Source: Podarcis pityusensis (lineage: Eukaryota). From it: a DNA stretch of 64,000 nt. Positions within the stretch are counted from its first letter, which is position 1; each line of letters opens with the position of its first letter. Shown piece by piece: positions 14,678-58,099 of the stretch. The stretch lies in NCBI GenBank assembly GCA_964106645.2, contig OZ067039.1. One strand, 5' to 3'. The notes beneath the pieces are model-generated. The model saw nothing but the letters and a program-made list of their open reading frames with translations. It searched no databases and was not told where the DNA came from. A program made the translations under genes and the position numbers.

Positions 14678-14897
14678 CAGTGGTAGCTCGGGTTACATAC
14701 GCTTCAGGTTACAGACTCTGCTAACCCAGAAATAGTACCTCGGGTTAAGAATTTTGCTTCAGGATGAGAACAGAAATTGTGCTCTGGCGCCGTGGTGGCA
14801 GCGGGAAGCCCCATTAGCTAAAGTGGTGCTTCAGGTTAAGAACAGTTTCAGGTTAAGAACAGACCTCCGGAACGAATTAAGTTCTTAACCCGAGGTA
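14678..14897. mobile_element. Mariner/Tigger-like MITE, one end truncated
   Basis: TA-CAGTGGTAGCTCGGGTTA start; inverted copy of the 18506 and 53274 elements. Confidence 0.85.
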
Positions 14898-18505: not shown

Positions 18506-18727
18506 CAGTGGTACCTCGGGTTAAGTACTTAATTCGCTCCAGAGGTCTGTTCTTAACCTGAAGCACCACTTTAGCTAATGGGGCCTCCTGCTGCCGCGCC
18601 GCTGGAGCACGATTTCTGTTCTCATCCTGAAGCAAAGTTCTTAACCTGAGGTACTATTTCTGGGTTAGCGGAGTGTGTAACCTGAAGCGTATGTAACCTG
18701 AAGCATATGTAACCCAAGGTACCACTG
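18506..18727. mobile_element. Mariner/Tigger-like MITE
   Basis: TIRs CAGTGGTACCTCGGGTTA / TAACCCAAGGTACCACTG with TA TSD. Confidence 0.9.
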
Positions 18728-26966: not shown

Positions 26967-27914
26967 GTAAGATTTCATGGCACCAAACAAGTGGAATGGA
27001 GTAGAGCTTAGTGAAGCTCACTGAGCAATGTGGAAGATTGTTCTCAAAGGCTCATTAAGGTTTCTTTAAAACTCGGAGGGCCTGTTCAGCTATTCTAGGA
27101 TTATCTTCACCATGATACTGGGGATTAGGGCTTGCGGGAAGATGCTGCATTTATTTGACCCTTCAGATCTACCAGTTTAAGAAAACAATGATGTCACTCT
27201 ATGTACAGCTCTGAGTCGTAATATACAGCTTAGCTTAGCGTTTTGAGTAAAGAAGGTGGTCTGTAATATTACAACCTCTGCATAAATCCAGAAGTTATAC
27301 TGCAGAAATTACCCACAGTTCACTGACCCAAATGCCACACTACCAATATTGTTGGCAATTGCCCTTCTTTCATACCACATTGGATAAAGGACTCCTGTCA
27401 CAAAATAGCTTTTTTGACAGTTCTTGTTCTTATTTACACAGCTTTTCTTTAACACAGTAATAGTTATTCATTTTCTGTGTTGGGAAAAGAAAGACAGTAA
27501 TGGGCTGGTTCTTATAAAATGCACACTCCTCCTCTGTTAAGAAGAGGATCTACCAACAATATTGCAGTGTGGCATTTGAGTTAATGACATATGGATTATT
27601 TCTGCAGTTCTGGAATATAACATTTGGACTGATGCAGAGGTTGTAATATTCTTTTCTGCCAATATTGCTTTTGGTTTCAAAGAATATAACATATAGCATA
27701 GTGTTATATGTGAACCAGGAGTGCTGGTTTAAAACAAACAATGGTATCTGATAAACAAGCCAACTTCAAACTGTGGATGGCGTTTTCAACTAACCATTAC
27801 TTATTTTAAACCAGGATTCCTGGTTCACACAACACTAAGCTCAGTTTCTTCGAACCTGAAATTAAACTCAGTGGAAGTGGACATTGTTCAGGTTCACCCA
27901 CACAGCACTACATG

Positions 27915-28042: not shown

Positions 28043-28675
28043 GGGACTAAACCAAAATTTAATGTTAAGTGCAAGCCAGTGGATTCTGCTCACATTAGGA
28101 ATTAAAGAGAGACTTCTGCATTGTTAGAGACTTGCTTTGTTAGGGACTTGCTTCTTTCTAAGTCAGTGTAGACCCAAAAAACAAGAGTGTTGCTAAGTAT
28201 TTATATACTGAATTTCTTATTTCAAAAAGTACACACAAAGTACACACAAATGGACTGACAAGTTGGTCTGGACTATGAAGAGCATCTTGCAGCAGTACAA
28301 AAACACTTTAAAATGGACATGACAGACTAGACAGAACCCTGAACAAAAGCACTTTGCTCTGCAACATTTTTATTTCAGGTTCTATTTCAAAAACAAAAGA
28401 CTAGAATGTTACTTTGGAGATGCCTTGTTTTTGCAATATTAGTTCCATGGCTCATCTCTTGTGATTTTAGACAAAGGTCACTAGAGGGTGCAACAGCCTC
28501 ACTTGTTAAAAACACATTTTTTTTGAGCAGCTAGATGTACGGTAAGAAAACAGCAGCGGAAACAAATTTTGTGCAATTGTTTAATGATACACAAATATAG
28601 TATAATCGGCAATACAGTTATGTAATTCTAGTTTTTGACCTGTTCTCTAATTGGTTTCCCCCCCTGTTTTTTAAG

Positions 28676-28778
28676 GAATGTGCTACAGATAGATGGGCCT
28701 TATAATGAATCATTCTATGAGAAGCTACTAGATATCTCAACTGAAGATGATGGAACAGTAGCATATGCACTGACAAAG
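28676..28778 (+). CDS. IPPK: IPPK exon 11 (NVLQIDGPYNESFYEKLLDISTEDDGTVAYALTK), ends at a GC donor
   Basis: ttttaag acceptor; homology and phase require the AAG|GCAAGG donor; 103 nt. Confidence 0.94.
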
Positions 28779-28821
28779 GCAAGGATCCGAAGTTCCTTCT
28801 TATTAATTATTAGTAGATGCC

Positions 28822-29565
28822 ATTTTCAGATAATTATTATACTCGCATATGTTCTGAACAGTTGTTGAAGACAGAGAGGCTAGGGCCTAGCATAGCAGAA
28901 GATCTACATCTAAGTCCTAATGCCAGCTTCTCTGTTGGGAGGCAGGGGAAGATGGGGTTCCTGCTGCAGGTGACCTCCCTGCCTTCCAGGCCACCTGGTA
29001 CCAACTACCCTGTGAAGAAGATACAAGGAGAGAGACACCAGATGCCTGCTCCAGATGCACGCATTTTGTTTGGCTTTTTACATATCAATTTGCATTTCAT
29101 AAAAGTTGTAAGCTGTTCTGAGGACTCCAGTTGAAAAGGAGGGTATACATCTAGTAAATAAATACAATTCTGAACATAAGGGCAATGTAGGAAAGTTGTG
29201 ATATGCCAGATCAGGCTGTTTGTCCATCTATTCCATTACTGTTTCATCTGACCGGTGGTTTATCTCCACAGTATCAGGCAGGAGTTTTCCCTGTTATCTG
29301 CTACCTTATTCCTTTTATTGAAGATGCCAGGAAATGAACCTGCATCTTTCAGTATGCATAGCATGTGGTCTACCACCAAGTTATGATCTTTCTAGACTGA
29401 ACATAGATTCAGCCTGGTAGTGAGAAGGAACATATCTTTGGAAGCCTCTTTATGAGGCCTCCCTCTCCAGGACTTAGGATGATCCGAGGCAGCAGGTACT
29501 TGTGAAATATAGTTCTCCAAGGCATCTGTGCCTTCTGAAGGCCTTCTGATGGGTAAGGTGTAGTG
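28822..29565 (+). repeat. Donor copy of a ~750-bp local duplication (IPPK intron 11)
   Basis: Near-identical to 39835-40597 in the same orientation. Confidence 0.95.
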
Positions 29566-31315
29566 GTAGCGTTCCAGTTACCAGACAATGATTCACTTGC
29601 TCAGATAACAGTCCAAACTGGAGGAAAACGTCTGAGACAAATCATGCTTAGTTTATAATACAGATGAGGTAATTACAATTTTTGGTGACACCACTAATTA
29701 CTATGCAGATTTTGCTAATGGTACCGTATATTAAGACCAGCTTTGCATGGAAGGCATTGCCTTACTTTGAACCAATTTTAAGTAAAGATAAGAAGCCCCC
29801 CCCAAGGAATTCTTAATGCACTCCCAATTCAGTTTGTATTAGCAATACAAGTCCTTTGCCTCTGTACACTTGGTCAAAGGGAACAGGAAATGGTTTCTTT
29901 CTTTTAGTAAGTAAAATGCTGGTATTAATAGCCACCACCCAATCATTTCACTCTGCATTAGAAGTGGAACAGGGCTTCATCTGACCTTGCCACATATTGG
30001 GGCTGATGCGATTGACGCAACCTGAGTGCTTTCTCCCACATTGCCCCTGGAACCAATGAAGCCATCCACCTATGCTTGAATTCTTTATGTGCTTACGTGA
30101 CTCAGAAGTGATGGATCACAGCATCATTTGTGTGCTATATAAATAGAGACTAACATTCTAATTGGACACTCCTGTGGCAGGAAATGGAAGGCAATTTTGA
30201 GCAATCCCCCACACTACCCCTGCTGTCTCTGCACTACCTCTCACATTGTTCCAGGGAATACTCTGACTCTCCAGAGCTTGTTTTCATTCAGCATAGGATG
30301 CTGCAGGTGGGAGGAATTTGTGTCCAAAATTGCCCCTTCCCCTTGTGTCAGTGGGAGCCTCCAGTTAGCAAAGTTCGGCCAAAGATAAGTCTGGAGCCAG
30401 CACAATGAAACCTAAACATGTTAAAGCTCTAATAAGGCTCCAGGTGTAAGAACTGCTTAATTTTTTTTTTGTTTTATGGCTTGGTTTTATTAGCAGCTTT
30501 GAGGGAAAGTGGTGTATTAATGTTGAGAATAAAACTGTCTGCTGAATGTGTTGGCTGATATTTCTCTGCTGGTTACTAGTGTTGTAGGCTCCAACATGTG
30601 GCTCAGTAGAACAGAGGTAGGGTTGTAATGTTGTCAATTAATTGGTTACTTGACTACTTGGAGTACAGTGAAATATTCCATGAAGTTGATGTACCTATAC
30701 CTGTGTGGCCTACCAGTGGCATAATTTGACAACAGCATGAATACAATCTGATTTTTGCTTGATCAAATTCCCAAACATATATAAATGTACAGGATTGTGT
30801 AGAGGAACATAAGACCCATTCATGTGGGTAAGGGGCAGCCTCTTGCATCCATGCAGAGTTGGTGTCTGACCAGGGGAAGGCTTGCAAGCATAGGTCTCTC
30901 TATATGTATATGTTTCCATGCAGACTGCATGGAAGCTTACACATCGGCTTCATTGGCTTAATGTAGGGGCTAGGGCCAGCAGCATGCCCTGCTTCCTAAT
31001 AACTACTTCCTTGATTCCTCTTCCTTGATTAATACAAGAAAGGGACTCTCTCATACCCCAGATAATATACGGGTACAATCAACAGTGGCCAGCAGCTGTT
31101 TCTGGTATCATATCAACTGGCAAAATTGAAATGGGGGCAGACCCTTGCAGTATTTATCTATGTATACAGGAGGTCAAGATTTATACTCTTGTTTTGCCAC
31201 ACAATACAGACAATAAAGATGTAAGAGGCTGGCTTGCATTTGTGATTGGCTGAGTCACCATTATAATTCTTAAGTAATTGTCTGTTAGATGAGTCCCGTC
31301 TTAATTTTGTTGCAG

Positions 31316-31395
31316 GTTCAGCAGTACAGAGTTGCAATGACAGCAAAGGACTGCTCCATTATGATTGCCCTCTCACCTTGCCAGCAGGATGAATG
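31316..31395 (+). CDS. IPPK: IPPK exon 12 (VQQYRVAMTAKDCSIMIALSPCQQDEC)
   Basis: ttgcag acceptor, ATG|GTAAGA donor, 80 nt, conserved DCSIMI motif. Confidence 0.97.
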
Positions 31396-32717
31396 GTAAG
31401 ATGATCTAGAATGTTATGCATGCTTCTTGGAGGTTCTCTGTCCACACTCTTCAGAATGATCAGTATACATTGAAGTTAACGCTGCTTTGGTTCAAATTTT
31501 ATTGTCCATTGATCATAATTTAAGCTCCAAACCCCATTCAACTAAAAGCATGCAAAAGTGATGATGCCTATGACAGCCTTTATTGAAAACCTAGTAATCT
31601 ATTTTTTAGATTTCTTAATAGTACACATAGCTTGGTCAAGAGGTTCGTGACATATTAGAATGCTTGGGGTGACACCCATATGTACTGGCCGATGGGCACT
31701 TCTTCCCTTGAGGGGAACTCCTTCATTTTGCCCCTTGCTCTGTCAGCATTGGCCAGTCATTGATAAATATGTCTGCTACATTCTAACTCACTTTGCAAAG
31801 TTCTGAATGTCTCTAGAAAGGCTCTGGTTTTAATTTAAAATATAATTATGGTAGTTACATTGAAATTTATATATATTTTCAGTTAGGGAAACAGTTAAAA
31901 CATATAAATAGGGGTTCTTCAACTAAACTTTACCAGCATAGCTTCTGCTCCCTGCTCCTATGCCAGTAAGGGAATAATGGTAAAGTCTTTGTCCCATGAG
32001 GATGGGAGTCTCATATTGTGGTTAGCAACTGCACAGATGATGCACCTTCCAAGGGACTAGCCATTAATGCTGGTTTCTATCTGCAGTGTCGGGCACATAA
32101 ATGTATGGAATACTTGACACATTCCTGTACTGGTATGGTAGCACCAGAATGAATGACTTTACTTACCAGGGAATCTTAGAGAAATGCCTCATGGGACCAC
32201 AGCTGTATTATTTACATATCAGAACAAAATTTGTGTAACAGGACATACTGCTATATTAACTTCTATGCAGATCTTTATTTCTTCAGATTTAAGACCTAAA
32301 TGTCTTGGTTTAGGGAAATGATTACTAATACTATATATTCTCCCTGTGTTATAACTGATGCAATATAATCTGGTGAAAATGGTGACTTAAATTTAAGTAA
32401 GCAGATTGCTAACATCTCAGTGCAGTTCATTTTTATGGCAATGTTGGTGGTATAACAATTTAGGGATGCTTGGCATAAACTGAGGTGGAAAATGATCAAC
32501 ATGATCAACTAAATTTTCATTCCACCACATTTTGGACTGGAAAAGCTGTATCTTATTTAAGACCACAGCTACTTCAAAAATGCAGCATCAGCTGAAGCTG
32601 GTCATGATTAGGTAATGGGTAAACTTTTTCATGTGTAGAAGATTTTTAAAAGTCTATTAATGTCATAATTTTTTCTTGGGGCAAGAAGTAACTTTTCTTT
32701 TTAAATTCAAACTACAG

Positions 32718-32943
32718 TGCAGTGCAGAGGCCACTGGTTTTAACTTCTAAATCAAGATTCACCTTTTCCGTCTCCGTCTTGGACCTAGACCTTAAGCCAT
32801 ATGAAAGCATTCACCATCAGTACAAACTTGATAGGAAGATAGTAAACTTCTATTTGAAGAACACACAGGCCAAAGACGACTCGGTGATGTCAAATCTCTT
32901 GAAAGAAAATGAAGACTGCACACTACTTCTCCATAAAATGTAA
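32718..32943 (+). CDS. IPPK: IPPK exon 13 coding part (AVQRPLVLTSKSRFTFSVSVLDLDLKPYESIHHQYKL...CTLLLHKM*)
   Basis: ctacag acceptor keeps the frame; LDLDLKP motif; TAA stop at 32941-32943. Confidence 0.96.
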
Positions 32944-35795
32944 CTGGCTAAATATTTATCAAACACAGAATGGGAATAATTAAGTTATGTTGGTTTTCTA
33001 TTATTTTCAGTTGTGCTTTAAATTTATCTGCCTTTCAGAAACACAGAATACCACTCAGACTACCTTGAAGGAATGTATTTATGGTAAAAGAGTTAGACAG
33101 ACATATGCACCCTACAGACCCTTAGTAAACTGGTTGCTGGGAAAGTAGTTAAGTTTGAATCAAATGACTACTGTATGAAGCAGAGAAGTGAGTATCTTGA
33201 ATTTAATTCTTCAATGCAGGGAACCAGTGTTCCTATGAGGTTTGCAGATGAAACTTTGCAAACAATAGTATGTGAACTGCTGAATAGCACTTGCTCAAAT
33301 TAATTGTAAAAGTGAACCAGCTCCTATTTAAAGTAGTTATTAAGCTGGAGAGTGGATATATGGTGCTGCCTAGGTTTTCAGCTTGAATCTTAATATTTTT
33401 TAGTCTTGTGACAAAATATGAGTTTGGTTGTTTCCAAAAATGGTATTGTAGTGGCCATTCTAAAAAAGCGATTGGAATACATGCGAGTAAACTTACAAAA
33501 CAAAGGAAACTTAATGGTATAGAGAAAAACAGCCTTATCAAACTAAACCAGCTCATCCTTACTCAAATAGGTGTTGCTTTTAAAAGTTCACTAGAACGAT
33601 TTAATTATGAAGCTCTTTCAAATGGTCCAGTGTTAACACAATTACATTCAATTGTCCCCCCGCCCCCCGATATTTTTAACTCCATGTAAAATAACTATAC
33701 ATGTGCCTCATTTATATACAGAAACCCTCCAGTAAAGCAAGCCATCCTGTGTTTTGCTGCTGTGGGAAGCATTTGTGAAGTTAAAGAGTGGCTTTATTAT
33801 CCCTGCCCATGAGTAATAAGTTTTGTACTTAATATTTTGTTGATTTCCCCCTTCTACATTAAACACCTGCAACTCTCCCAGAGCTGGGTAAAATAAAGTC
33901 ATTGCTAATTGAGATGTTCCTCAAAGTGAACTCTATGAATTTGAAACTTACCTCACATTAGTTATTAGTTAGCAAGGAGCATTTTCTCTAGAAGTGCCTG
34001 TGCATGATTATTACTGTCTCTTACCCTATCTTGCATACAGATAATAGGATATATGCCTCAGGTTTGGCAGGCTGCAGGGCTCATCTGCTCAGACTCTTTT
34101 CCCACTGTGCTGTGCAATGGCAATAGGCTTCTCTTATTGTATAGGAATATTACTGTTCTTATTCTGGCTGCGTGACTTGAGCCTCTGAATTCAAAATGCT
34201 GGAAAGGCAAGTCATGTCATGGGCTTTTTGTAGAACAGGAGAAACTTTCATAGGGGTTGCCAGGGGGCAAGATACTTGAAGTGGGTGAAGGCTATCTGTG
34301 AGAAACCCAGATTTTAAGCTGCTTTAGCCATTCAAAAATTAGTATCGATATTCAACTGTAGGCATTTATGTTCTAACTGACATTTTGTGTGTGTCATCAG
34401 TGATCCAGTTTATTCATTGTCTTTAAGGTACAGTATCTATCCCTAAAAATCTAAAAGAATACTCTTGCCATTACCAATTAAGCTGCTACAGTTAACATTA
34501 AATATAATGGTAACATTTCAAAACTTGTATAATTTGAATACTTGTTCTCATCTTACACAGAACATAATTTTGTTAGTGTCTCTATTCATTCCCATTACTT
34601 CTAAAAACTGTCTTGTGATAGCTGTACAGCTTAATTATAAGATGTGGTTATATAGTTACAGACCTCAATTCACAGGATGTCAAGGAACCCAACTGCAGGT
34701 TAAGGCATTTATCTAGAATAAGACTTATAACTAGGTTGAAGTTAGTAAACTGCTATGCCTAATGGTTGGTTACAATCAGTACTTAAATTTGTTAGCTGAC
34801 TGAAGTGTCAGGTAATATCTTATATCAGGTTTCCTCTTGGTATGTAAAGGTTCTGCAAGGAAGACTGTCATTCCCATATTCCTGAAGCAATAAGCAAAAC
34901 AAGGCAATGGCACAAATAGATGTGCAGCAATGCTTATTTGATTTTGCATATTCTGGTCAGAACTAACTGATCAGAAGTAGGTAAAATTCTACATTTATAA
35001 TCTAGGGCCAGGGAGTCAAGTGAGTTAAATTGCTGTTTAAGGGGTTTGCTTGAGGACTAGGTTTCCACCTTTTGAAAACAGCTACAAAGCTTGCTTTTAT
35101 GCAAATACTGTTGCGGCACTCAAAAAGAGCAGGGAGACCTTTGAAATGGTTGTGCTACTTAACTTGGAAAGCAAAAAAACAGCAAGTACATGGGATAAGT
35201 TGTATGTGGGTCAATGATCTTGACCTTGCTATTTTCATTATAAGCAATCCTGGGACTAAAAATAAATAGGTTACATTTTGTAAATTGTAGCTATGCCTTC
35301 TGATCCATTGTAAATTAAAATTTCACAATTCTATTTTATGAAAGGTTTGATAAACCTGGTTTTGCCTTTAATCACTGATTGAGGAAAGAAGCAGTTGCGA
35401 ATACTGAGTGAAGTTTTTTGCATCTTGAAACTTCCTTTCATTTAACTTTTCAGTGTCATTTCTAATCTAAGAATCTGTTACATATACAGCTGTGAACAGA
35501 AACTGTCACTTTTTATAAACTTGAGTTTACCAGGTCGATCTGAAGAGGTTCTAGGAAATGCTATTGAAGGGGGGGGGGGGGGAGAAACCACTTCAATTCA
35601 GAAAGTTAACTTTTTAAAAATAAAATTCACTTATCTATTTGGCATTTTGTATTTAAAATGGCTGTATTTATTTGTCATGATGATTTATATATATATGTGC
35701 CATAATTGTACAGATAGCATGTTTTATGGGTTTGATTTCTAAATGAAAAATAACTTAATGTTTATATTCAATAAACTATAGATGCATATTTTATT
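32944..35795 (+). other. IPPK: Probable long IPPK 3' UTR with candidate poly(A) signals at 33892, 35261, 35619 and 35770
   Basis: AT-rich, repeat-poor sequence after the stop; AATAAA hexamers; TGTA motifs upstream of the distal signal. Confidence 0.6.
35770..35795. terminator. Convergent poly(A) signals: AATAAA (+, 35770-35775, IPPK) and AATAAA (-, 35790-35795, CENPP)
   Basis: Direct sequence: caataaactatagatgcatattttattg. Confidence 0.65.
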
Positions 35796-35805
35796 GTTCT
35801 GGTAT

Positions 35806-35924
35806 TCATTTATCATTGCAAAGTGACTTGATCAGTGTTTCAATGCATGCTTGTATTCCAAGCACATGTAGTAGACTTCTGAAGCAGTACGGAGCATCTG
35901 ATGCAAACTTGTTAGCTTCCACCA
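35806..35924 (-). CDS. CENPP: CENPP last exon (VVEANKFASDAPYCFRSLLHVLGIQACIETLIKSLCNDK*)
   Basis: Minus-strand acceptor ttccctcttacag; phase 1 matches the previous exon; resembles the CENP-P C-terminus (AP.SFR.L...LGIEA..E.LIKSLC). Confidence 0.92.
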
Positions 35925-38146
35925 CTGTAAGAGGGAAAAAAATGGAGTTAACAATTCACTTTAAATACTAATAATGACTTGAAATGGTCTAGCACTGCAA
36001 TTTTGAATGAGGTCCAGAATTTATGCATTCATCTGTATTTAGGAAGAAAATACTTTTTTACATTAGCAGTATACAACCCATTTCTACCTCTGTGTCATTA
36101 GGATTTGTACTGTTTCTCAGGTGTGGATAAGCTAAGCCTGGCTATGTACTTTTAGTTGCCTACTGGATTACCTATAAGGGGCGGTAGATGGTGGGAGTGC
36201 ATTCCTGTTATTTCCCTAGAAGTCTGAAGTTTTTGATTATGCTGGTTATGCTACCCTTTGCAAACTGGGAGATGGGCTTGGAAGGATATTTTGGTTTGGT
36301 GGCTTGGATACTTTCTTGAAGGGAGGCTCCCTAAAGAAAGGGGGGGGGGACACTAGAACTATCAGTTCTACCCCAACTGCATAGGCCTATAGGTACACTA
36401 AATATATATAGTCTGCTCTCAACATCTAGCATGTCTATCACGGTACATATCTTTGTCCTATTCTAAGCTTTGGTAGTTTTAAAGACACTTTGCCTCCACA
36501 CTCAAGAATGTGGCTTGAGTGTAAGATAATAAATAGATGAACTAGGTATGCCATACGAAGTTGCATAGCAGCCTCACAGGGTGAATCAATCCCTGGCTTC
36601 TGTATATTACCCCAGGATGGTTTAAATTTTAATTTCCTGATAATGATTTTCAGCGTAAAGTTTGCAGTCCAAAATCGATGTAGGGGGCATCTAACGGATA
36701 ACTAATAGGATGCATGCCATATCATAATTATCTAATTATAACTTGCCAACTGTTGCAAACATTTAATATTTATAATTTGTATTGCCTCTGTGGCTTTGCC
36801 AAACTGCCTAAGGAGCAACACTGCCAGAATTTTCACAGAAGAAAAAGGAAAATGAGGTGTTGAAGACAGGAAATCTTGGGCATCTGGCTAAAGAAAATGG
36901 TAGTGGCTGAAAATCAGTGGCAGGTCTAAAGAAATTGAGTGGAGAAAAGATGATCTCCCTGTCCCCCCCACTTCTTTTCCATCATTTCCTCACTCCAATG
37001 GGGATGAATGAAACCCATCCCCCCACTGATCTACATGGGCTGTGGGTGCGTGTTCTTGCTTTAGGGTCTGACTCCACCCACAGCTAAAATGCAGCCCCCA
37101 AGAGCTATCCAGCCTGAAAAGGGGTCATAACTTGGTTAGATGCTTGAACGGGCTGCTGCTTAAAACAAGCAAAATTAGGTCAGTTACTTTTTTATAAAAA
37201 TAATAAATGTAAAATGGAAATTGCAAATATTAATAGCCAAGTTGTAATAAGGGGCAACCATAAACTCTTGAAATGTGTGTTCATTATTTGCCGTCTCTGA
37301 AATTTCTTGTCAGATTGGCTAGCCTCTGTGTCACAGAGATTCCACTCCTTCAATACAGGAGATTTATAATTAATATTTTTGCTCTTCTGGATAAATGCCA
37401 AACAAACTTGATGTTTAGTTCACACTACTCAATACCAATATTCAAGCATTTCTACATTTGGGGACAATTCAAACAAAATATGGAGAAAATCAGCTATTGG
37501 TTGAAAGTAATTAAACCCTGTAGGTCTTGAATTTCTGTTTATGTAGGAAGTTTGGCAAGATGAAGAGAGCCTATACTGAGTGAATTGAAAACTTGCAACC
37601 CAGTATCTCTCCCCCCCCCCCATTAGTTGTAAGTTGATAGGTAATGAATGGGACAATTATCCTTTACAATTCTTTACTAAAAATCAGACTTTCAAAAGGG
37701 GTTTCAGGTCCCCAGCCTTACATTCTCAGTTGAAAATACTGAAACTGAGAGAAGTAAACTGGTTATTTGGTGGCTTAAAGAATTTCCTTCTTGGACTACC
37801 TCCCTAAACTGTGTAGTATTATAGTGGATCCAGTGGAGATTACTCCCCTTAAACAAGAAAGTCACAAATGAAGCAGTAGTCAAGGCTTCATGCGTACTAC
37901 TATCACAGCTGTATTTTGATCTGATAGCCTACAGGGAATAACAAGGGCCAAGAAGCGGGAGGAAAGTAGCTGAACATCACATACCAACTGAACTAGCCAG
38001 CAAAGTCTTTGTAGGCATTTAATAAACAGATGCGGATTTTGTTGAACTACATATTATATGCAAGTGTGACATACTAAACCCATTGGGGGCTTCATTAAAC
38101 TAAACTGATTATCTCAGCAAGCTGCAGCTTGGGGCAGAGAAGCAGG

Positions 38147-38150
<4 letters not shown>

Positions 38151-38193
<43 letters not shown>

Positions 38194-38210
38194 TGTGTTT
38201 GTGTGTGTGT
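38151..38210. repeat. (GT)n microsatellite
   Basis: Direct. Confidence 0.95.
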
Positions 38211-38483
38211 CTCCAATATGCTTTTTCTTTGCAGAGAAAAGGCTAAATAAGTTGCTTTCTATTTAAAACAAAGCGAACGAGGACTTTATTCTTGTTATTA
38301 ATATGTATTGTGTAGTTTGTCTTTAAGTGCTGCCAAAAGAATACTGTTATCAAGACAATGAATGTTTTGCAGGATGTACTTTCAGGAATGCAAAGCAAGA
38401 AGACTTTCAGAGAGAGAATGAAGCTGGAATTAAATGGTTGGAACAAGGAAAGAAATACTTTATACAGTACTGTGTAGGCATAC

Positions 38484-38575
38484 CTGACATTGGTATTTTG
38501 TGGAGGAGATCCAAGACTGGTGTAACTTTTCCTTCTTCATCTACATATATCTTCCAAACAATCATTAACTCAAGT
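38484..38575 (-). CDS. CENPP: CENPP penultimate exon (LELMIVWKIYVDEEGKVTPVLDLLHKIPMS)
   Basis: 92 nt, tatag acceptor and gtatgc donor on minus; matches CENP-P ELVIVWRIQIDEDGKV.P.LDLL.K.P. Confidence 0.94.
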
Positions 38576-39563
38576 CTATAAAAGGCAAATGATATTAAAT
38601 GTCAGAGCTTCAGAGGTCAAATTCTGTATTGCAAAAAACTCTGCAGTTAGCAAATACACACTACTAGGCGTATGTATACCTGCTGCTGCAGAATTTCTGA
38701 TGCTAAGGAAGAATGTTATTTTGCTCTTAAGTCTTTTTCAGCCTTTTCTCTTCGGGCTGCTGCTTTCAGAGGCAGGAAAACTCTACAGTTACCCCTTCAA
38801 GAGACGTGCCTGGTACCAACTGTGTAGTTGCTAAACACACTTTTGTACACCAGGACTACCACCTCAGCCATATCCTGCTAAGGCACATTAATGCTGGGCA
38901 AGGTCAGTTGCAATGAAAGCAATTTCCTGTTCCAAGACTTATCTACCTATTGCAATTTATTCATGTAAAGGAAGGTTGGCTCATAGGAGAAGTGCAATAT
39001 GGAATATGGAAGGGCACTTACAATGACTTGAGTTGTCAAACAAAATAATGAAGGGTGCGTACTTTCTGGTACTGGACTTTTATCATGGCCTTGAGGCCTT
39101 TATAAGAAATGCTAGAAATTGTAAATCTACTTTGAGGATTTCAACATCTTTTTAGCGAAGACTATGAACCAAATCATTAATTTACTTTCAAATGTTGAAG
39201 CAGGTAAAGTTATGAAACTCACCTTATTCTGCATTTTGAAGAAATGCATTTTGCAGATTCTAAAGAGATTTTATTTTGAGAAATTTTCCCTGCTAAAATA
39301 TGTGTTCCTGCTCAATCAATAATATTTCTATTGCCATCAATTTCAAATACAGCAAATTGTGTCATCATGTTTCAATACTGTGAACCTTTGAAAAACTACC
39401 ACCACTTTTCCATTATGTCAGTTTCTATGCAGTTGCTGCCTTGGCCTCCTTTGGAAGGAAGGAAAGGCTGTAAACAGAATAAATAAATAAATTCCACTTA
39501 TAATTTATAACTATGACCATTCATCAACAACTTTCATTAATGTGTATCATAAAGCTTCCTTAC

Positions 39564-39643
39564 CCAGGAAGGTTAGCACTTCTTAAGATCATGTAATCTC
39601 CAGATGATCCTTCGGGAAGTACTACAACATCAGGATACTTATT
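39564..39643 (-). CDS. CENPP: CENPP antepenultimate exon (NKYPDVVVLPEGSSGDYMILRSANLPG)
   Basis: 80 nt, taatag acceptor and gtaagg donor on minus; matches CENP-P KYPD.V.L.EG.S...M..RSA..PG. Confidence 0.93.
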
Positions 39644-39834
39644 CTATTAAATGTAAAAAAAGACAATACTATAGCCAGTCTGTAAAGATATTAATAGGTA
39701 CAATCCTACTGATAAGCCAAATATTAGTTATAGCCTGTCTGCCCCCCCTCCCCCCGGAAGTATACATGAGTTGAGAGTCAATATGAAGTAATATTGAGTA
39801 GACTCTGGACACTGATGATGATCCAACAATTGTG

Positions 39835-40597
39835 ATTTTCAGGTAATTATTATACTTGCATATGTTCTGAAAAATTGCTGAAGACAGAGAGGCTAGGGCC
39901 TAGCATAGCAGAAGATCTACATCTAAGTCCTAATGCCAGCTTCTCTGTTGGGAGGCAGGGGAAGATGGGGTTCCTGCTGCAGGCGGCCTCCCTGCCTTCC
40001 AGGCCACCTATTACTAACTGCCCTGTGAGAAGATACAAGGAGGAGACAGACACCAGATGCCTGCTCCAGACGCACTCATTTTGTTTGGCTTTTTACATAT
40101 CAATTTGCATTTCATAAAAGTTGTAAGCTGTTCTGAGGACTCCAGTTGAAAAGGAGTTATTTACATCTAGTAAATAAATACAATTCTGAACATAAGTGCA
40201 ATGTAGGAAAGTTGTGATAAGCCAGCTTAGACTGCTTGTCCATCTATTCCATTACTGTTTCATCTGACCGGTGGTTTATCTCCACAGTATCAGGCAGGAG
40301 TCTTCCCTGTTATCTGCTTCCTTATTCCTTTTATTGAAGATGCCAGGGATTGAATCTGCGCCTTTCAGTATGCATAGCATGTGGTCTACCACCAAGTTAT
40401 GATCTTTCTAGAGTGAACATAGATTCAGCCTGGTAGTGAGAAGGAACATCTTTTTGGAAGCCTCTTTATGAGGCCTCCCTCTCCAGGACTTAGGATGAAC
40501 CGAGGCAGCAGGTATTTGTGAAATGTAGTTCCCCAAGGCATCTGTGCCCATGGTTTGAACTAGAATTCCAAGGCCTTCTGATGGGTAAGGTGTAGTG
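39835..40597 (+). repeat. Inserted copy of the ~750-bp duplication (CENPP intron), flanked by 28-bp direct repeats
   Basis: Matches 28822-29565; flanks CAC(T/G)GATGATGAT(C/A)CAACAATTGTGATT at 39810-39837 and 40600-40627. Confidence 0.95.
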
Positions 40598-40874
40598 TGC
40601 ACGGATGATGATACAACAATTGTGATTGCACAAAAGACCACTTGAAGAAAAATTCTTATGGGTTGGACATAATGAGACAAGGTGATTTTTTGCCAGTGCC
40701 TCATGCAACCCTCTGGTATGGCCTCCCCACAACCCTCTGTAGCAGGTTTTAGTTGGGCATTGGGGGCTGTAGGGAAATTGGCAAATATGGCCTCCCCACT
40801 TTTCCTCCAACAGAGTTGTTCAGTTAGTGGATTTCCACTCTCACCAAGTCTGGATTTAACAATATAAAAACAAC

Positions 40875-41022
40875 TATCTGACTTTAAGATAGGGCTAAAG
40901 GCAGCCCTGTTTAGGGAAGTTTTTAATGTTTGATGTTGTCGCTTTTTTATTAATATTCTGTTGGGAGCCGCCCAGAGTGGGTGGGGTATGTATGTATGTA
41001 TGTATGTATGTATAAATAAATA
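40875..41022 (+). mobile_element. L2-type LINE 3' end with (TATG)n/(TAAA)n tail
   Basis: aaggcagccctgtttagggaagtttttaatg...gggagccgcccagagtgg...ggggtat followed by a simple-repeat tail. Confidence 0.65.
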
Positions 41023-47898: not shown

Positions 47899-48946
47899 TA
47901 ATCCCCAGTTGTCTCACCAGCCATTGTCCACTTCTGTTCTGTTCCCCTTTCTTTTAGATAGCACACATAGTTTCCCCTCTCCACATTTTAGTATCACAAT
48001 AACTGTGTGAGATAGGTTACAGTTAAACTATCGGTAACTGATGTGGCAAACTGTGCACACATAAAAACTTAATCTGCTTCAAAACAGCCTATTTGCGAGA
48101 TAACACCCTCAGCTGGAAACATCCCTTATGTCCTCATTGCAAATATGCATGGATTCACTGGGCAAGATGGTTACTGAGGAGTTAGTGAACAGAACTGAGC
48201 AAACCATCATTCTCTGTATTATTCACTGCTTTAAAAGGACAAGGAAAACGAGAGTAGTCCTTCCTTTCATACTCTTAATAGAAATATGGCATCCTATAGT
48301 CAGGGCTTGAAGTTACTTGTATCTCTCACAGTTGTAAATATAACAAAACTTTCTCAAAAGGGCTGTCACATGATGTCTTTCCAAATGAAAGATACTTTTG
48401 ACTTCTTTTGACACTAAGTGTATTCATGCAGAGGACAATAAATGGCAGAAATAACTGAAAGAGATACTATTGTTGTACAAGTTGCCTAACAACCAAAACA
48501 GAGATATGGCACAGGAATGCTTTTCAATGCCCTTAGTGCAGCACTTCAGAGGCTGGGTATAATATTCATCAACTTGGTATGAAACTATTCTAAAATGTTG
48601 TTTATGTACACATTCCTGTTCAAGACTTAAGTGCACTGGACAAAAGGAGGGTTCCCCCTCCCAACCCAAAATGAGATTCTGTAGGCTGCTTTTAAATAGC
48701 TGCAGAAACACTATGCCAAATTTACGTAAGAAGACTGTACTACGACATGTACTGAAACTTCAGATTTTGTGGGAAACAACACTGTTCTCTAGAACATTTT
48801 AAAAAGTAGTAATGCATTTTCAAGACTGGCAAATTAGAAGTGGTTCAGAAGAGAGCTTTGAAGATGTGGGGTAGGCTTAGTTTAGTCCTAGAACAAACTA
48901 TATATTAGGAGGCTTACTTTGGTCAGAATCGAGTATATACTTCCAG

Positions 48947-49240
48947 GTAAAGGGACCCCTGACCATTAGGTTCAGTCGTGGCCGACTCTGGGGTTGTGGC
49001 ACTCATCTTGCTTTATTGGCCGAGGGAGCCGGTGTACGGCTTCTGGGTCATGTGGCCAGCATGACTAAGCCGCTTCTGGCAAACCAGAGCAGCGCACGGA
49101 AACATCTTTCGAACTGCTAGGTTGGCAGGAACAGGGACCAAGCAACGGGAGCTCACCCCGTCGCAGGGATTTAAACCGCCAACCTTCTGATCGGCAAGTC
49201 CTAGGCTCTGTGGTTTAACCCACAGTGCCACCCGTGTCCT
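48947..49240 (-). mobile_element. Sauria SINE, internally deleted
   Basis: GTAAAGGGACCCCTGACCATTAGG...GGTTTAACCCACAGTGCCACCCGTGTCC; perfect 13-bp TSD TATATACTTCCAG (48934-48946, 49241-49253). Confidence 0.9.
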
Positions 49241-52200
49241 TATATACTTCCAGAGTTAATGCTAAATACATTACTTCTGGTAAATGAGCCATCATAGCCA
49301 CCAGAGGGCCATGAAAATTTGTGTACCGGGCCTTTTAAACTCAGCTTCCCATAGAACTTATATTCCACTTTCCCCCTCCACAAAGGAATTGCTCAAAGTG
49401 GCTTACAAATATAAAGGCAATCATAAGAGCACAACTATTAAAACACATTTGAGATGCTGATATTGCTTTCATATCAATACTTTGGCATAGTCTAGAATCG
49501 TAAACGCTATTTTTTTTGGCTAAAAGAAACTTCAACATTTCTTCAAGAAGCTTTATGAAGCTTGTAGAGCTTATTTTCTTGTTGTTAAAGAGTGTTCAGG
49601 TACCTTTTAAATTATGCACACATGCCTTAATATTGGAGGGAATTGCTATCAAGACTAACTCAAACCATGTCTGAAGTTTCAGGTAGTCTGGATGCAAGTT
49701 ATTGCACTTCTGAATATTATGTGCAGCATAATGCTATAAAATTTTCTTGATGAAAAGCTTGGGTAAATTAAAATAATTACCTCAACACTTGGCATTCTGT
49801 GTTAGATCCTGCCTTTATGCAACAGATATTGTCTAAAAAGCCCAACACTAACATCATTGTCATGAAAGAAACAAGACCGGCTTTTAAGCTTGAGCAGTTT
49901 TTCAGGAATGCAACCCATTTTCTTTTTGTCCCAAAGAAGATATTTGTGATATGAGAGAGTTTCATTACTTTGTTTTCCCCCAACTCATACAAATGAATTC
50001 CAACTCCCTCTCTCTTTTCTTTTTATACCCAAAGTTTCATCTGGTAATTTAGTATCACAGGCACTTCACTTTGTATATCTCTTCAGGTTGTTTTACATAG
50101 AGCAAAGTAATTAAATAATGTTTTCTCTGTATGCACTTTTGATGATGATCACAAAAATGTACAACAGTCTTATTAACTAATGTGGTGGGTACTGCCGAGA
50201 TTATTATTTTTTAGATTAGGCATTTGACAGAAATGGAAAATTCCTGAGTTATGGTGAGGATGCCATCATGAAAACAATCAAGTGACCCAGTCTTAAATTT
50301 GGATGTGTTGCCCAGAGACTTTGAAATCCCTGATCAACAATAAATATCACATCACATATACAATATACTCATATCACCAAAAGGTTCCAATCTTGCTTTA
50401 GACGCAGAGTTGCCAGCTGGGATTGGGAAGAGTTTTGAGTGTATCTCAGAAAGGCTGAGACAACCAGTAAAATGCGCTGGTTAGTCTGAATATCTGGAGT
50501 ACAGGTATGGTGAAGAAGGAAAGTATAGAGAGAGAACACTTCCCAGGATGTGATTCCCCTTGTTCACAACCCCAGTGTAGGCTTGGGTACTGCATGCCCT
50601 GCAAGCAGAAATAACCTGCATGTGGAACTCTGTCCCAGATGGCCCAGACTTCTGTAAGTGAGATTCTAGAGACCTTGCCATTTCCTGCTCTGGTTCTGTG
50701 GTTCTGTGCTATGACAAGAAAGGTGGGCTCCACATACACATTTGCCTCTGGAGGCTGAATGAAGATGCCAGTGACACAGTGTCCCACAATCCCAATGAAG
50801 GCCTCTGCCCTCTGTCATTCATGCCTATGACTCAAGGAGTGGCTCATGGTAAGAGTACAAACTCATCATGTAATGCCATCTTTCACAAACACAAGAAGGA
50901 TATTACAAATTTAAGTGCAAATATTCTGAATAAGTTGAAGGGAGAACTATTACTTTATTGATTTATTTCACTATGGGTTGGAGTCTGAATTTATTATCAT
51001 GGGCTGAATGGAGTTCTACTCATCCCAGCACCACCTCCCATGCTGTTCTGGGATGGTTCAGGGGGGTATTTTTACTTTAAGCAATTTTATCACAAAATCT
51101 TCAAAGACAGGGAGGGTTGAGTTTCAAATATGCTGTTATGAAAGAGGAAAAAGAGTTTTTGAGAAGCTCAGGGATCAAAGCCGAGAATTGGTTAGATGAG
51201 GTTTTCTGAACTCTCTTGCTGGGATAACTGGGCAATATCACCATGTGAAAAATATCAGAAAGCCATAAATTAGCTATTAAATTTCTGTACTTCTTTGAAT
51301 CCTATTGAATCTTTGTCTAAAGAAAGCAAATTCTTCCTCATATGTACGCACTAGACAGTTTCATGTTGAGCTTGAAGAGTCTTACTTTACAACTGAATGT
51401 TCACATGCTATGACTACATATGTTTCCTATTTATTCATTGATGAGATGAAAATCTGACTAAAGTGCTTTATTTGATGTTTAGTGTTAAATCAAAAGCATA
51501 TTAAATGTACTAAACCAAGGTAGAATATGCTTCAAAAACAATTTGAAAACCTGTGAGAAATTTCTGATTCCTGTAGAAGTCAGTGTCAGAATATGAATTA
51601 TATATATTGGATATGGCAGAGTAGATACGATTTATGTCCTGACACTTCTACATTTTCAACCCAAGGCTTGCATTTCCCTATGAGCAACTTTTCAGAGGCC
51701 AAATGCCAATGGTGAACATGGCCAGAGGCAAAAGTGGGTGAGGTAACTGATGCAACTCTTTTGTTTGAACAGTAGGCTACATTTCAGCCATGAAAAAGCC
51801 AGAGGCTTCTACACTCCCTCCTCATATCTCTTCATCTTCCATCCAGGCATTATCACAGTTCAAGTACACATTCCAGTCAGGCAAAAGCACTCAAGGAGGA
51901 TGCGGAGCAAAGTCAGTGAGGAACTGTGGCTTGGGAAAGAGGTGTAGCCTAGGAAATTTCCCAAGAATCTGGTAGAAAAGCTGGGAGGAATGCATTTGTC
52001 TTACCCACCTTCTAGGCCTTAAGTTCCCTGCATAATTATAGCGAGTTCCAGAGCATAATTATAGCCATTATGGGTGGATGCTACAGACTTCTGATTCTAT
52101 TGCAATTAGAAAATAGTGTTGGTGGCATCCATTTGTCTCGGGAGACAATGGAGGAATGCACATTTGGGGGTGAAAATGGAATCCTGCAAACTGTTCAGTT

Positions 52201-53273: not shown

Positions 53274-53491
53274 CAGTGGTACCTCGGGTTAAGTACTTAA
53301 TTCGTTCCGGAGGTCCGTTCTTAACCTGAAACTGTTCTTAACCTGAAGCACCACTTTAGCTAATGGGGCCTCCTGCTGCCGCCGGAGCATGATTTCTGTT
53401 CTCATCCTGAAGCAAAGTTCTTAACCCGAGGTACTATTTCTCAGTTAGCGGAGTATGTAACCTGAAGCATAAGTAACCAGAGGTACCACTG
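53274..53491. mobile_element. Mariner/Tigger-like MITE
   Basis: CAGTGGTACCTC TIRs with TA TSD; same family as 18506-18727. Confidence 0.9.
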
Positions 53492-55144
53492 TATTTAAGA
53501 ATGTAAGCAAAATAGTCTTTTATGAAGTGAAAGGTGTCCGGCTCTTCATGTTTTTGTATCTGCTCAAAAACCTGAGTCATCTGAATTCAGACTGAAAATA
53601 ACACGATTCATTTTCTCCTTTGCCATACTCCAGTCCAGCTGTTTTCAGTTTATTTCACTTGAACCAAGAAGGCTGTTTGCAAGCTCAAAACTTGTGTCTG
53701 TAAAATTCCCAGCCCATTTCCCCCTCCTAAGTCAGTAGGAACTAGAGAACCTCTTGTTCACCAATGAAATCCAACCAAAAATGATTCATGACAAGTTGAA
53801 ATATATATCATCCTATTCAGCATAAACAGATTCCTTACTACTACAGAAACCATACTAATTTAGAAACCTAATCTATATTATTTTCCTAACTTGGACTAAA
53901 TAGTATGTCTGCAGTAATGTAATAGGATTCTTTATGCTTAAATGGCACTGCTTTATGTACCTTAGAAAAGCATTTGCTTTGAATACAGCCTCTTTAAACA
54001 GTAACCACATGTGTATAAGTATAGGATATTTTAGGTATTGTTGTAAACCTAAATGAAGTAGGAACAAAATGGATCCAGGCAATGACCACACAATGAAAGG
54101 CCAGCAACTGAGAACTGGGCTGGGTTTGTCTTACACTATGGAATTATGAAGAAGTAAACATGATAAAGCATTCTCTGATGTGGATCCCCCAGCAACCTAT
54201 GGCCCAGTCCTATAAGCCGCTGTGCAAAATCAGATCATAGAATCCAGCCCAAGGATTGTAGCACCAACCAAAGGCAGACTTAAATTCTGCTGGAAATTTC
54301 TATTCCATACCACAGATGAACCCTGACATATGTGAAATGTGTATTAAGTAAATTTTAACTGCAAAGATGAAGTGTGCCTTTCTTCAACAATGGAAAAGCC
54401 ACAGCCTATCTGCCCCAGCCCCCCAAAAAATTAAGAGCAAGGAACAAGACTTCTAGACAGGGTTGAGCAGCAACTTTTTCTCTTAGAAACTATAAATCAG
54501 GCTACAGGAACAGAGCTGCCATCTTAAATTCAATATGAGTCATGAAGCCAAGTAGGAGGGTGAAGATTACAGAAAACAACACGAAAAATATATTCTTTTA
54601 CAAAATGAAAACCAATATTTATTCAAGAGTCCCGATGCATTTCAAACCAAAACATTTCTTCAGAGCAGTTCATTGCAATTCACATGTCCAGAAAGCAGAT
54701 CTGTCTTTTGACAACCTGAATCCCCCTGAAGAAACAGGCTGTGACTCTTGAAAAAACACCGGCTTACACCATTTTGAATTCCCCCTTTTGTCCTTGTCCT
54801 TAAATTTAACCCCAATTCTTGTAAAAGAATATTTCTTTGCACCCTACTGTGCCACTGTTTTTCCTTTAGGCCTTGTATGGCACAGTTGTGTTGTAATACT
54901 ACGTCACATATTGACATGTGATCATCAAGCTGTTCTCTGATTTCTAACAGCCACAAAACAATTCTACAACAGAATGGCACACATATTCTACCTATTTTTG
55001 AGACCTTCAAGCACAACCATTTTAAAAGGATTGTTTGTTCCCATTTGTAGAATTACTTCAGTTCTCTTGGAAAGAAACTTGTTTTGCAAAGAGAACAAGT
55101 GTTAGCAAGCATGGCACAGATTCTAAGATAACATACGCATGCTA

Positions 55145-55491
55145 AAAAGGTAAAGGGACCCCTGACCATTAGGTCCAGACCGACTCTGGGGTTGCAGCGC
55201 TCATCTCGCTTTATTGACTGAGCGAGCCGGAGTACAGCTTCCAGGTAATGTGGCCAGCATGACTAAGCTGCTTCTGGCAAACCAGAGCAGTGCACGGAAA
55301 TGCCATTTACCTTCCTGCCGGAGCGGTACCTATTTATCTACTTGCACTTTGATGTGCTTTCGAACTGCCAGGTTGGCAGGAGCAGGGACCGAGCAACAGG
55401 AGCCCACCCCGTTGCGGGGATTCAAACCGCCGACCTTCTGACCAGCAAGTCCTAGGCTCTGTGGTTTAACCCACAGCACCAACCGCGTCCC
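55145..55491 (-). mobile_element. Sauria SINE, near full length
   Basis: Same family as 48947-49240; 12-bp TSD ATAC(G/A)CATGCTA (55133-55144, 55494-55505). Confidence 0.9.
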
Positions 55492-58099
55492 TTATACACA
55501 TGCTACTATTAGTCAATTGGCTGAAAAAAGATATAGCTGAAAGTAGGGAAAAGGTTGTTTGCTGTACATGAGATGGTAGTCAATGAATACTCTAATTTCA
55601 TTGTGTGTTTTGGCTTTAAAAATAAAATTGATAGTGTGGGATTGATTGTAAAACCAAGCACAATGAGCATGTATCTATTCAAGGATATCATCACCTTTGT
55701 TTGTTATTTTATGTTGCTACTGTTTGTGGGGGTTGATAGTGGTACTCCACAATGAGCATCTGGCACAGTAAGGAAGTGCGTGTGGAGTTTATCACAGTCC
55801 CTTTGTGATGGCTGGAGCTTAGGTGACAGCAGCCTTGGTGGATCAGGGCATAATTGTATGCCAGCTGCAAATTTTAATGGTTTGAGCATAGTGAATGATT
55901 CTTGAGTTCATAGTGTGTGGAGATGGGTGAATGTAATAATCTTTACCTTACTTGTTAGCTGCTGTATTGACAGTACTATTTTATCATCTATAATTATTTA
56001 TAATGGTTTTAATGATGTTTGTTAATTATGCACAGTGCTATTTTTCTATTAAAAGGGGTGCCAGCACTCACCATGAACACCTCCCTTGTTCTCTAAGAAT
56101 GGCAATGGCGCCAACCTGAAAGGTGCTCTAACTGAATTTCAGTGAGTTCTGGCTGGAAAAAAACCTTGATTATATAGGCAGTGACCATTTTAGGCGCATC
56201 CAATTGATGCACAGGTCCTTTTGAACCCAGAAGAAGGCGGAACAGGGAGGAACATGCTTATATGCGCTCTGCCAGTGCACGTGGGGGCCAAGTATCTAAG
56301 ATGTGGTTTAACTAAGATGTTATGTTACATTGCTGCTGTTTATCATTTGTAAGACATCTTGGAATACATTGTATGGAAAGTGGCAGAGAAATACAATAAA
56401 TCAACCATATTGTATCAGTCAATCATGAACACAGGTCTGCACAGCTTAAAGGCCAAGAGTCAATTGCTCCCCCCAATTTGTCTGTTTATGCTACTTCCAA
56501 AGGAAGTCTTATATTCACTGTCTGTGTTCCTTTTTCACTGTTGGTAAGAAAATCTAATTCATCATATGTGCTGGAGGGAACAGAATAATGCCTCATCACT
56601 GTTTTTGTAGCTTCTCTGGCATGAGTTAGAAGTTCATGGCTGAGTTACCTTCAGTTTTTTCATCACAATGCAGCCAGTTCTATTGAATGGTCTAGCTATG
56701 CTCAAACCCCCTTTGCTGGTGTGGAGTCCTACAGACTGAATGGCTTGTGTGTTGCTGCTGCTCAAGTTAAAAAAAGAGGAGTGGAGATAAGGAGGAACTG
56801 GCTGAGAAAGGATGCTCCAGAGGGCCCTGTGGATGAATAGCAGAAAAAAGGAGAACAAAAAACAGGGTTGCAGTGTTCTCTTGACAGACGAACAAACAGC
56901 ATGGGATAGAAGAGATAGAAAAGGAGAGGAAATTAACAGAGTGGTTCAGAAAGAGAATATTTTTATGGGGTGAACATAGAAAAAGAGTGTTAAAGGAGAA
57001 TGTATTAAATAACTTGCAAATGATTTTTTTTAAGCAAAAAAATGTGGTGCTTTGGATATAGCAAAAATATAAAAATTGCATTCAGTGTGATCTGAGCTTT
57101 GTACCCTGCTTTAATTTAACAGAACCAATACTTAATGCCATTAAAAATATTATACACAAGTGATAATTTTTCCTTTTCTAATTGACACTGGGAGTCACTG
57201 GGCATGCTCACTCCACTTGACAGGTTCCCCTGTTTTAATGTTTTGCACTTTTGCATTCTTCCAGAACATATCAATACATTAATCATGCTTCTTTGTGGCA
57301 TCATTTTGGCTCCAGTCTTAATGACATTCAGCTATGAGAAGGAATGACATTAACTCTCAAGGCAGCAATTTAAAAATTCATTTCACAGTAGAATTTTGAG
57401 GGGTTGCCGCCTCTTCCTCCTCGTTTGTGCTTCATGCTGTTGCCTCTCCCCCCCCCCCCCATATTTCACTGGCTCCCAAGTCAATAGCTGGTTAATCTTG
57501 TATGGTTTTATAACATTTACGTATGGAAATGTTGCAAAATCATATAAGATTATCCAGCAATTGGTGCATATTCCATTTGCTATCAGCCAGAGATTCTATT
57601 TTGATATAGTTTTAATTCTTGCATACATGTGTTAAATAAATATATGCAGTGCATTTATACCTTGATTTCATTTGTTTACTTGCCTTCAAGCTGGGCATCA
57701 TCTTTGCAATGTAACACCCAAAAAGCTGTCTAGCACTTAAGGAGATTGCAAAATATTATTATTGTAATTTGCTAAATCTCTGAAGATGTGTTTCAAACCA
57801 TTCTCAAATGCACATGCTTCCTTAAAAAAAAAAAGTCAGAATGACTATACAGCACTAAATCATTATTTGGAAAGGTCTAAGCAGACATGTTTTATGATCT
57901 CACATCTTAAGTATTGTTTGTTTGATTCAGATCCTTTCGCAATGAAGCACTGGGTGGAAAATTATTAAAATATGCTCCAAGGAATGGCTTGATTTATAAT
58001 GCGGCCTTTCCTTTTATTTAATAAAACTTTTTGGAGTTTAAAACATAGCCAATTAAAAAATATTAATTTTCATTAATGAATTTCTATATAAAATTAACA

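Follow-up and report, generated by a model that had tools for sequence, protein, structure and literature searches.

Repair-mediated duplications (RDs), in which proximal DNA is captured by a process of the SDSA type, were described by Pace, Sen, Batzer, and Feschotte in 2009 (PMC2671141). In the portions of that report on which we draw, 824 of 1,136 human duplicons have a donor within 5 kb, a poly(A/T) tail occurs in 0 of 39 proximal cases, and the structural class termed 'MH+TSD+Filler' accounts for 2 of the 39 proximal human cases and for 1 of the 12 that are interchromosomal and tailless, MH+TSD adding 3 further proximal cases (Table 1 of PMC2671141; TSD, target-site duplication). Where the two copies lie more than 5 kb apart, the same portions give no confident repair-mediated call. 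Excerpts of two other studies bear on structures of this kind: small tandem duplications arise from paired nicks that leave 3' overhangs (PMC8355091), and the 'cycle' of templated insertion is defined by re-replication of a segment of the host (PMC7025897).

Here we describe a lizard locus that is most likely a further instance of this class of event, known since 2009. It lies in a 64-kb stretch of the Podarcis pityusensis genome (contig OZ067039.1; 64,000 nucleotides, hereafter the window). None of the papers listed under the term 'repair-mediated duplication' was, by its title, about squamates.

Self-BLAST of the window (E ≤ 1e-8) returned nine off-diagonal matches, the strongest of which joins 28822-29565 to 39835-40597 on the same strand with 92.3% identity when gaps are counted; the remaining matches all cover 357 columns or fewer. 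A preliminary description of this DNA had read the pair by eye as a same-orientation match of roughly 93 to 95% identity, and local alignment bears this out, with 705 matches and 36 substitutions (22 of them transitions) over 741 columns, that is, 95.1% ungapped identity, 4.9% differing positions, and a JC distance of 0.050. The substitutions are spread evenly along the alignment and are accompanied by several indels, and CpG decay is seen in both copies (1 and 3 sites). The insert is at least 50 bp long (763 bp), its parental copy is intact and more than 50 bp away (10,244 bp), and the arrangement is non-tandem. The distance of 11 kb first given for the template is right from start to start (11.0 kb) but not for the gap between the copies (10.2 kb). 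No third full copy was found within the window by self-BLAST or nhmmer, and no tandem array inside the segment. As first described, neither a terminal inverted repeat (TIR) nor an LTR was detected (scores of 4 and 7 against null means of 5.8 and 9.0), nor any other terminal repeat pair; both segment ends lack a poly(A/T) or microsatellite tail, including (CAA)n and (ACCTTT)n, and no AATAAA or ATTAAA poly(A) signal is close to either of them.

Direct repeats flank the CENPP copy only, as had been noticed at the outset. They are identical at 26 of 28 positions and score 22, whereas random position pairs 740 to 790 bp apart reached a maximum of 14, with 0 of 2,984 scoring 15 or more. The best repeat around the IPPK copy scores 8, a value equalled by 236 of the 2,984 random pairs, and is a chance match. 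No further copy of the 28-mer with fewer than 10 mismatches was found elsewhere in the window. The divergence of the two repeats (2/28) is compatible with that of the insert, to which it had been likened, in a test of little power (Fisher p = 0.64). At the left junction, the ATT microhomology of the preliminary description is confirmed: the last 3 nt of the left repeat are also the start of the donor, an overlap of at least 3 nt having a chance of ~0.06, and since these bases are common to both, the true TSD measures 25 to 28 bp. What had been overlooked is the right junction, where two filler bases, TG, match neither the continuation of the donor nor the bases preceding the left TSD copy. The whole structure can be written as two jumps, one back over 11,013 bp at the 3-nt microhomology and one forward over 10,244 bp with the two filler bases, the latter landing 25 to 28 bp behind the point of departure. 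An AT-rich quasi-palindrome (28801-28839) is centred 2 nt off the left breakpoint of the donor. A role for a hairpin there was rejected: of 2,000 random positions, 2.75% score as high for inverted repeats, and although this is a low share, the site was one of four breakpoints tested, and it folds at only -0.6 kcal/mol, with 91% of 1,500 random windows folding equally well or better.

Exon mapping by tblastn placed both copies in their genes as first proposed, the donor in IPPK intron 11 and the recipient site in a CENPP intron. With an Anolis-named IPPK query, a filter of at least 60% identity or E < 1e-3 kept 15 rows, 13 of them collinear coding exons on the plus strand and 2 noise (E of 4.3 and 9.7). 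The donor starts 43 nt past the splice donor site of exon 11, in an intron that extends from 28779 to 31315; this intron opens with a non-canonical GC donor (28779-28780, plus strand), and the next exon begins at 31316 with the phase unchanged. The last three CENPP exons, on the minus strand (39643-39564, 38574-38485, and 35934-35809), are 100%, 90%, and 95% identical to those of Podarcis raffonei (3 real rows of 12), a result that indicates a lacertid. No further CENPP exons were found up to 64 kb, which places the inserted copy in the long upstream CENPP intron, 164 nt ahead of the acceptor AG. The two genes are thus convergent, IPPK on the plus and CENPP on the minus strand, and a candidate CENPP poly(A) signal lies at 35795-35790, with the donor 6.2 kb beyond it. 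A Pfam scan of 239 stop-free frames of at least 62 aa gave three matches to the IPPK family (plus strand) and one to CENP-P (minus strand); two additional weak matches, both under the cut-off, lie outside both copies. Elsewhere in IPPK, intron 1 holds a GC-rich tandem repeat (12082-12263, a 76-bp unit repeated 2.3 times), and intron 10 holds nested inverted matches at 27265-27841 (27265-27369 with 27539-27650, and a self-palindromic 27695-27841), possibly decayed foldback or MITE remnants. The duplication and its place in the two genes are established, as are its two junctions and the presence of a TSD at one copy only; the features are collected in Table 1.

Table 1. Coordinates of the duplicated segment, its junctions, and the neighboring exons in the window
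Feature	Positions	Strand	Remarks
IPPK coding exon 11	28674..28778	+	left limit from tblastn; followed by GC splice donor
Donor segment, 744 bp, IPPK intron 11	28822..29565	+	no flanking direct repeat
Deletion scar in IPPK copy (21 nt lost, 5 nt gained)	29530..29549	+	polarity by parsimony
IPPK coding exons 12 and 13, between both copies	31316..32943	+	
CENPP last three coding exons, between both copies	35806..39643	-	
Left TSD copy	39810..39837	+	last 3 nt (39835-39837) common to donor start
Inserted copy, 763 bp including microhomology, long CENPP intron	39835..40597	+	95.1% ungapped identity with donor
Decayed L2-type 3' end with short TAAA-type tail	40121..40180 (donor: 29106 onward)	+	motif tuned by eye against Squam3 consensus
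Decayed SINE-like remnant with tRNA-like head	40185..40490	-	SINE reading and left limit by eye
Filler, 2 bases	40598..40599	+	right junction
Right TSD copy	40600..40627	+	26/28 identical to left copy

The segment itself contains two decayed repeat remnants in opposite orientation. The plus-strand remnant is similar to the LINE-derived end of the Squam3 consensus, and a 17-nt degenerate L2-type motif, tuned by eye, matches both copies and one other site, while a 22-nt version of the 3'-end motif gave no matches. The Squam3-like SINE label of the preliminary description is supported in part, by this L2-type 3' end; the tRNA-derived head and the CORE-like body motif of Squam3 each gave 0 matches at up to 3 mismatches, a search that an old, ~60%-similar copy could escape. 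Such an L2-derived 3' end is common to L2 LINEs and is not diagnostic of Squam3. The minus-strand remnant, which may be Squam2-like, has a dispersed relative at 3823-4002 (nhmmer E of 4.7e-7 for 40308-40489); this relative is too divergent to polarize the substitutions between the copies. Coding sequence or structured RNA in the segment was rejected, as the nine stop-free frames of at least 62 aa that overlap either copy gave no Pfam match and the window gave 0 Rfam and 0 ARAGORN matches; a box-B-like motif occurs in neither copy (one chance-level match elsewhere). A 204-codon stop-free frame on the minus strand (40411-41022) runs across the right TSD into the insert, has no Pfam match, and is probably due to chance. 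Since the remnants oppose each other, element ends are lacking, and the IPPK copy has no TSD, we favor the view, already taken when the segment was called a mosaic, that it is copied intron and not one element.

Measured against the RDs of Pace and colleagues, in the portions of that report used here, the locus is alike in being a non-tandem local copy of less than 1 kb, tailless and with an intact donor, of the class MH+TSD+Filler, with a microhomology of 3 nt (published range, 2 to 9) and a filler of 2 nt (published range, 1 to 68), and in having both donor and acceptor in introns (PMC2671141). It differs in its TSD (25 to 28 bp against 4 to 21 bp), its length (741 to 744 bp against a proximal maximum of 619 bp), and its distance, which at 10.2 kb exceeds the 5-kb cut-off and puts it in the 'distant' bin, outside the confident set; squamates are absent from the genomes surveyed, and these ranges are human (PMC2671141). 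The lizard duplication therefore works like an RD yet misses the published operational limits on distance, length, and TSD.

Other described systems share parts of this structure, as far as the sections of these reports used here extend. As in the templated-insertion cycles and local jumps of cancer genomes (Li et al. 2020, PMC7025897), the path proposed for the lizard event runs from the host site to a template, which is copied, and back to a point behind its departure, so that a segment of the host is replicated again; those events are somatic, in tumors, with templates typically on other chromosomes, whereas this one is in the germline, with one local template and a 25- to 28-bp overlap, and is indistinguishable from a duplication followed by a deletion (PMC7025897). 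Templated sequence insertion polymorphisms (TSIPs; Onozawa and Aplan 2016, PMC5110952) are likewise intronic sequence copied elsewhere, but from distant donors, whereas the donor here is near. Of their class 1 features the locus has a TSD of at least 5 bp (25 to 28 bp) but lacks poly(A), a poly(A) signal, and the TTTT/A site, and it has the microhomology and untemplated junction bases of class 2, which is without the TSD present here (PMC5110952). Tailless retropseudogenes (Noll et al. 2015, PMC5322556) resemble it in having a TSD and no tail and in possible internal priming, here at a short minus-strand A run; they are products of therian L1 with the target TT/WAAAAWW, a motif missing here, where moreover the source is adjacent (PMC5322556). 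As for insertion mediated by Bov-B (RTE), the machinery is present in lacertids, and the minus-strand TSD starts with A and has a T run upstream, but this run lies at -8 to -5 and not at about -10, the cut is without TA, the TSD is about twice the usual 10 to 13 bp, and there is no (CAA)n or (ACCTTT)n tail. The CTGAA at the minus-strand end, which recalls bovine Bov-B, was dismissed as coincidence because the reptile tail is (CAA)n.

Other repeats are present in the window. A short repeat occurs in three copies 83 to 89% alike (14670-14897, 18501-18730, and 53280-53498), with ends that resemble terminal inverted repeats beside TA, and is presumably a MITE of the Tc1/mariner type. Two copies at 48934-49253 and 55133-55505 (-), probably Sauria-like SINEs, have TSDs of 13 and 12 bp and served as internal controls for TSD length. 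Their ACCT(TT)-type tail is a feature of Sauria SINEs (PMC13295347).

The best explanation, to which we assign a somewhat better than even probability, is a single germline copy-and-paste repair event in cis on a DNA template, that is, a repair-mediated local duplication. A staggered break, or a stalled fork, would have arisen in the CENPP intron, and the plus-strand 3' end at 39837 would have annealed through ATT to IPPK intron 11, 11.0 kb off on the same chromosome, and copied ~741 nt of it. The copied strand would then have been released and, through the two filler bases, joined to the opposite side of the break at 39810, 25 to 28 bp behind its departure, and filling in of the staggered ends would leave these 25 to 28 bp present twice, as an apparent TSD. 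Both copies would since have drifted (5.0%), the IPPK copy later undergoing a small deletion that was patched with 5 nt from a local template. IPPK is likely the donor and the CENPP intron the recipient, because the TSD is found at the CENPP copy only and both ends of the homology adjoin it, which agrees with the direction first proposed. We infer this direction, the single event, the DNA template, and the geometry of the break, as well as the age of the insert and its probable neutrality. The account is supported by the one-sided direct repeat of 25 to 28 bp, far above chance, and by the lack of a tail, poly(A) signal, TIR, or LTR; the 3-nt microhomology is weak evidence by itself (p ~0.06). 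With a genome size of 1.4 Gb, the chance that a random insertion lands within 11 kb of its source is ~1.6e-5, a proximity that is partly forced because only pairs inside the 64-kb window could be noticed. Staggered-break repair from a nearby template, the first mechanism of the preliminary description, is supported and matches a published class, in the parts of that report used here (PMC2671141).

That description had overlooked a two-step history, in which the 11,016-bp block 28822-39837 would first be duplicated in tandem, with an ATT junction, and the second copy would then lose 10,244 bp, leaving the 2-nt filler where the deletion closed; the '28-bp TSD' would then be the surviving right end of the duplicated block. 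The exact order, orientation, proximity, and junction types observed (an 11,013-bp duplication-type and a 10,244-bp deletion-type jump) follow from it, as does a repeat longer than any listed TSD, and its intermediate leaves both genes intact, with the end of IPPK in the first copy and that of CENPP in the second. A deletion that clears the duplicated CENPP exons must end within 39646-39837, where 28 of 192 positions (15%) leave a remnant of 28 bp or less. We hold this history to be rather unlikely in that it requires two rare events, no other trace of a 10.2-kb second copy was found in the window, and tandem duplicates collapse more simply by unequal recombination; on one genome, the two routes are inseparable. 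A multi-copy non-autonomous mobile element of an uncharacterized kind, inserted at both loci from a master elsewhere, would suit the 5% divergence, which is typical of young repeat families, and the repeat-like pieces within the segment. It is very improbable given that the IPPK copy has no TSD, which 5% divergence would have kept, that TIR, LTR, and tail are lacking and the nine overlapping frames have no Pfam match, and that the inner remnants point opposite ways and no third full copy occurs in 64 kb. A Helitron was rejected by eye, neither the termini of the segment nor so long a TSD being characteristic of these elements. An assembly artefact, whether a false duplication or a mis-joined haplotype, is extremely improbable, the 36 evenly spread substitutions, the indels, the CpG decay at 1 and 3 sites, and the two differences between the TSD copies all being signs of age.

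Copying from RNA is the remaining class of explanation. The reverse transcriptase of a LINE (L1 or Bov-B), primed internally on intronic RNA, would give a tailless retrocopy with a TSD, the source being IPPK pre-mRNA (plus strand) or RNA from the minus strand, for example CENPP read-through. Target-primed reverse transcription typically leaves a clean TSD. Read on the minus strand, the copy has as its last bases a run of four A that shares AAT with the start of the TSD, whose first base is A, and 5 to 8 nt upstream there is a T run. This loose Bov-B-like context is met at ~6% of window positions and holds at 2 of 7 candidate starts, while the strict Bov-B Tn-TA context (a cut at TA with about three T around P-10) is false at 7 of 7, and the L1 motif TT/AAAA, which may not be the preference of squamate L1, is mismatched at 3 to 5 of its 6 positions in each of the 7. 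Should the microhomology be the priming end, the minus strand, antisense to IPPK, would have served as template; in L1 insertions microhomology can also mark a truncated 5' end, which would fit an IPPK pre-mRNA template, and either could apply here. Retrocopies are expected to land anywhere, not 10 kb off. The in-window Sauria-like SINE controls have TSDs about half as long as the 25 to 28 bp found here, and Bov-B TSDs in Podarcis muralis measure 10 to 18 bp (first 15 of 357 entries, some probably false matches). In the sections of the published work used here, TSDs range from 7 to 18 bp for L1 and from 7 to 15 bp for RTE (PMC6007223), although a 2026 preprint reports longer squamate L1 TSDs (PMC13320814), which weakens the argument from TSD length against L1. 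Likewise, tailless L1 retrocopies primed at internal A-rich sites were screened with TSDs of 8 to 35 nt (PMC5322556), and 5 of 12 tailless interchromosomal cases are of the Filler+TSD type without a tail (PMC2671141), but class 1 TSIPs need both poly(A) and a poly(A) signal, neither of which is present here (PMC5110952). Capture of IPPK intronic RNA by a LINE reverse transcriptase, the second mechanism first put forward, is disfavored by the lack of a tail and, on both strands, of an L1 or strict Bov-B motif, by the long TSD, and by the proximity, and we judge an RNA-templated origin unlikely. One further reading, which we consider improbable, is an in-cis RNA-templated germline insertion from tethered CENPP read-through RNA, by a LINE reverse transcriptase or a repair polymerase. 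Since CENPP and IPPK are convergent and the donor lies 6.2 kb past the candidate poly(A) signal, such a tethered RNA would contain both target and donor; a nick in the CENPP intron would prime through the 3-nt match beside the four-A run, and ~741 nt would be copied into the same transcription unit. It would jointly account for the proximity, the orientation, the missing tail, and the long TSD.

Under the preferred DNA-templated repair, the later history of the copies can be followed near 29533, where 21 nt of the CENPP copy are aligned opposite 5 nt of the IPPK copy. These 5 nt recreate a neighboring 9-mer, giving the direct repeat 29530-29538 and 29541-29549, and a search of the window for a source of the 21 CENPP-only nt gave nothing below 6 mismatches. 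By parsimony, the simplest reading is that the IPPK copy underwent a single later deletion, patched from a local template; a later deletion is also how the indel had first been read. Gene conversion between the copies was not supported (longest perfect run, 105 bp; p = 0.06). At 0.0013 substitutions per site per My, the copies would have split about 19 My ago (range, 13 to 26). A faster substitution rate in lacertids would shorten this estimate. The rate applied is a squamate one (used in PMC13295347).

By itself, a single locus of this kind is of little weight, being intronic, probably neutral, and of a known class, and its wider interest is limited to the in-cis RNA reading, which, if true, would make it a natural fossil of RNA-templated repair from a gene's own read-through transcript. 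The copies (28822-40597) form direct repeats that enclose IPPK exons 12 and 13 and the last three CENPP exons, with a longest perfect run of 105 bp; from repeats 95% identical that flank both gene 3' ends, we infer that unequal recombination would delete or duplicate both ends. The CENPP copy keeps 21 nt seemingly lost from the IPPK intron, and as a presence/absence insertion ~10 to 25 My old, it might be of use as a marker in lacertid phylogeny. The locus is a clean case, from a lizard, of local duplication of the repair type that exceeds the ranges published for humans, and it suggests caution in assuming that a reptile insert flanked by a TSD arose by retrotransposition.
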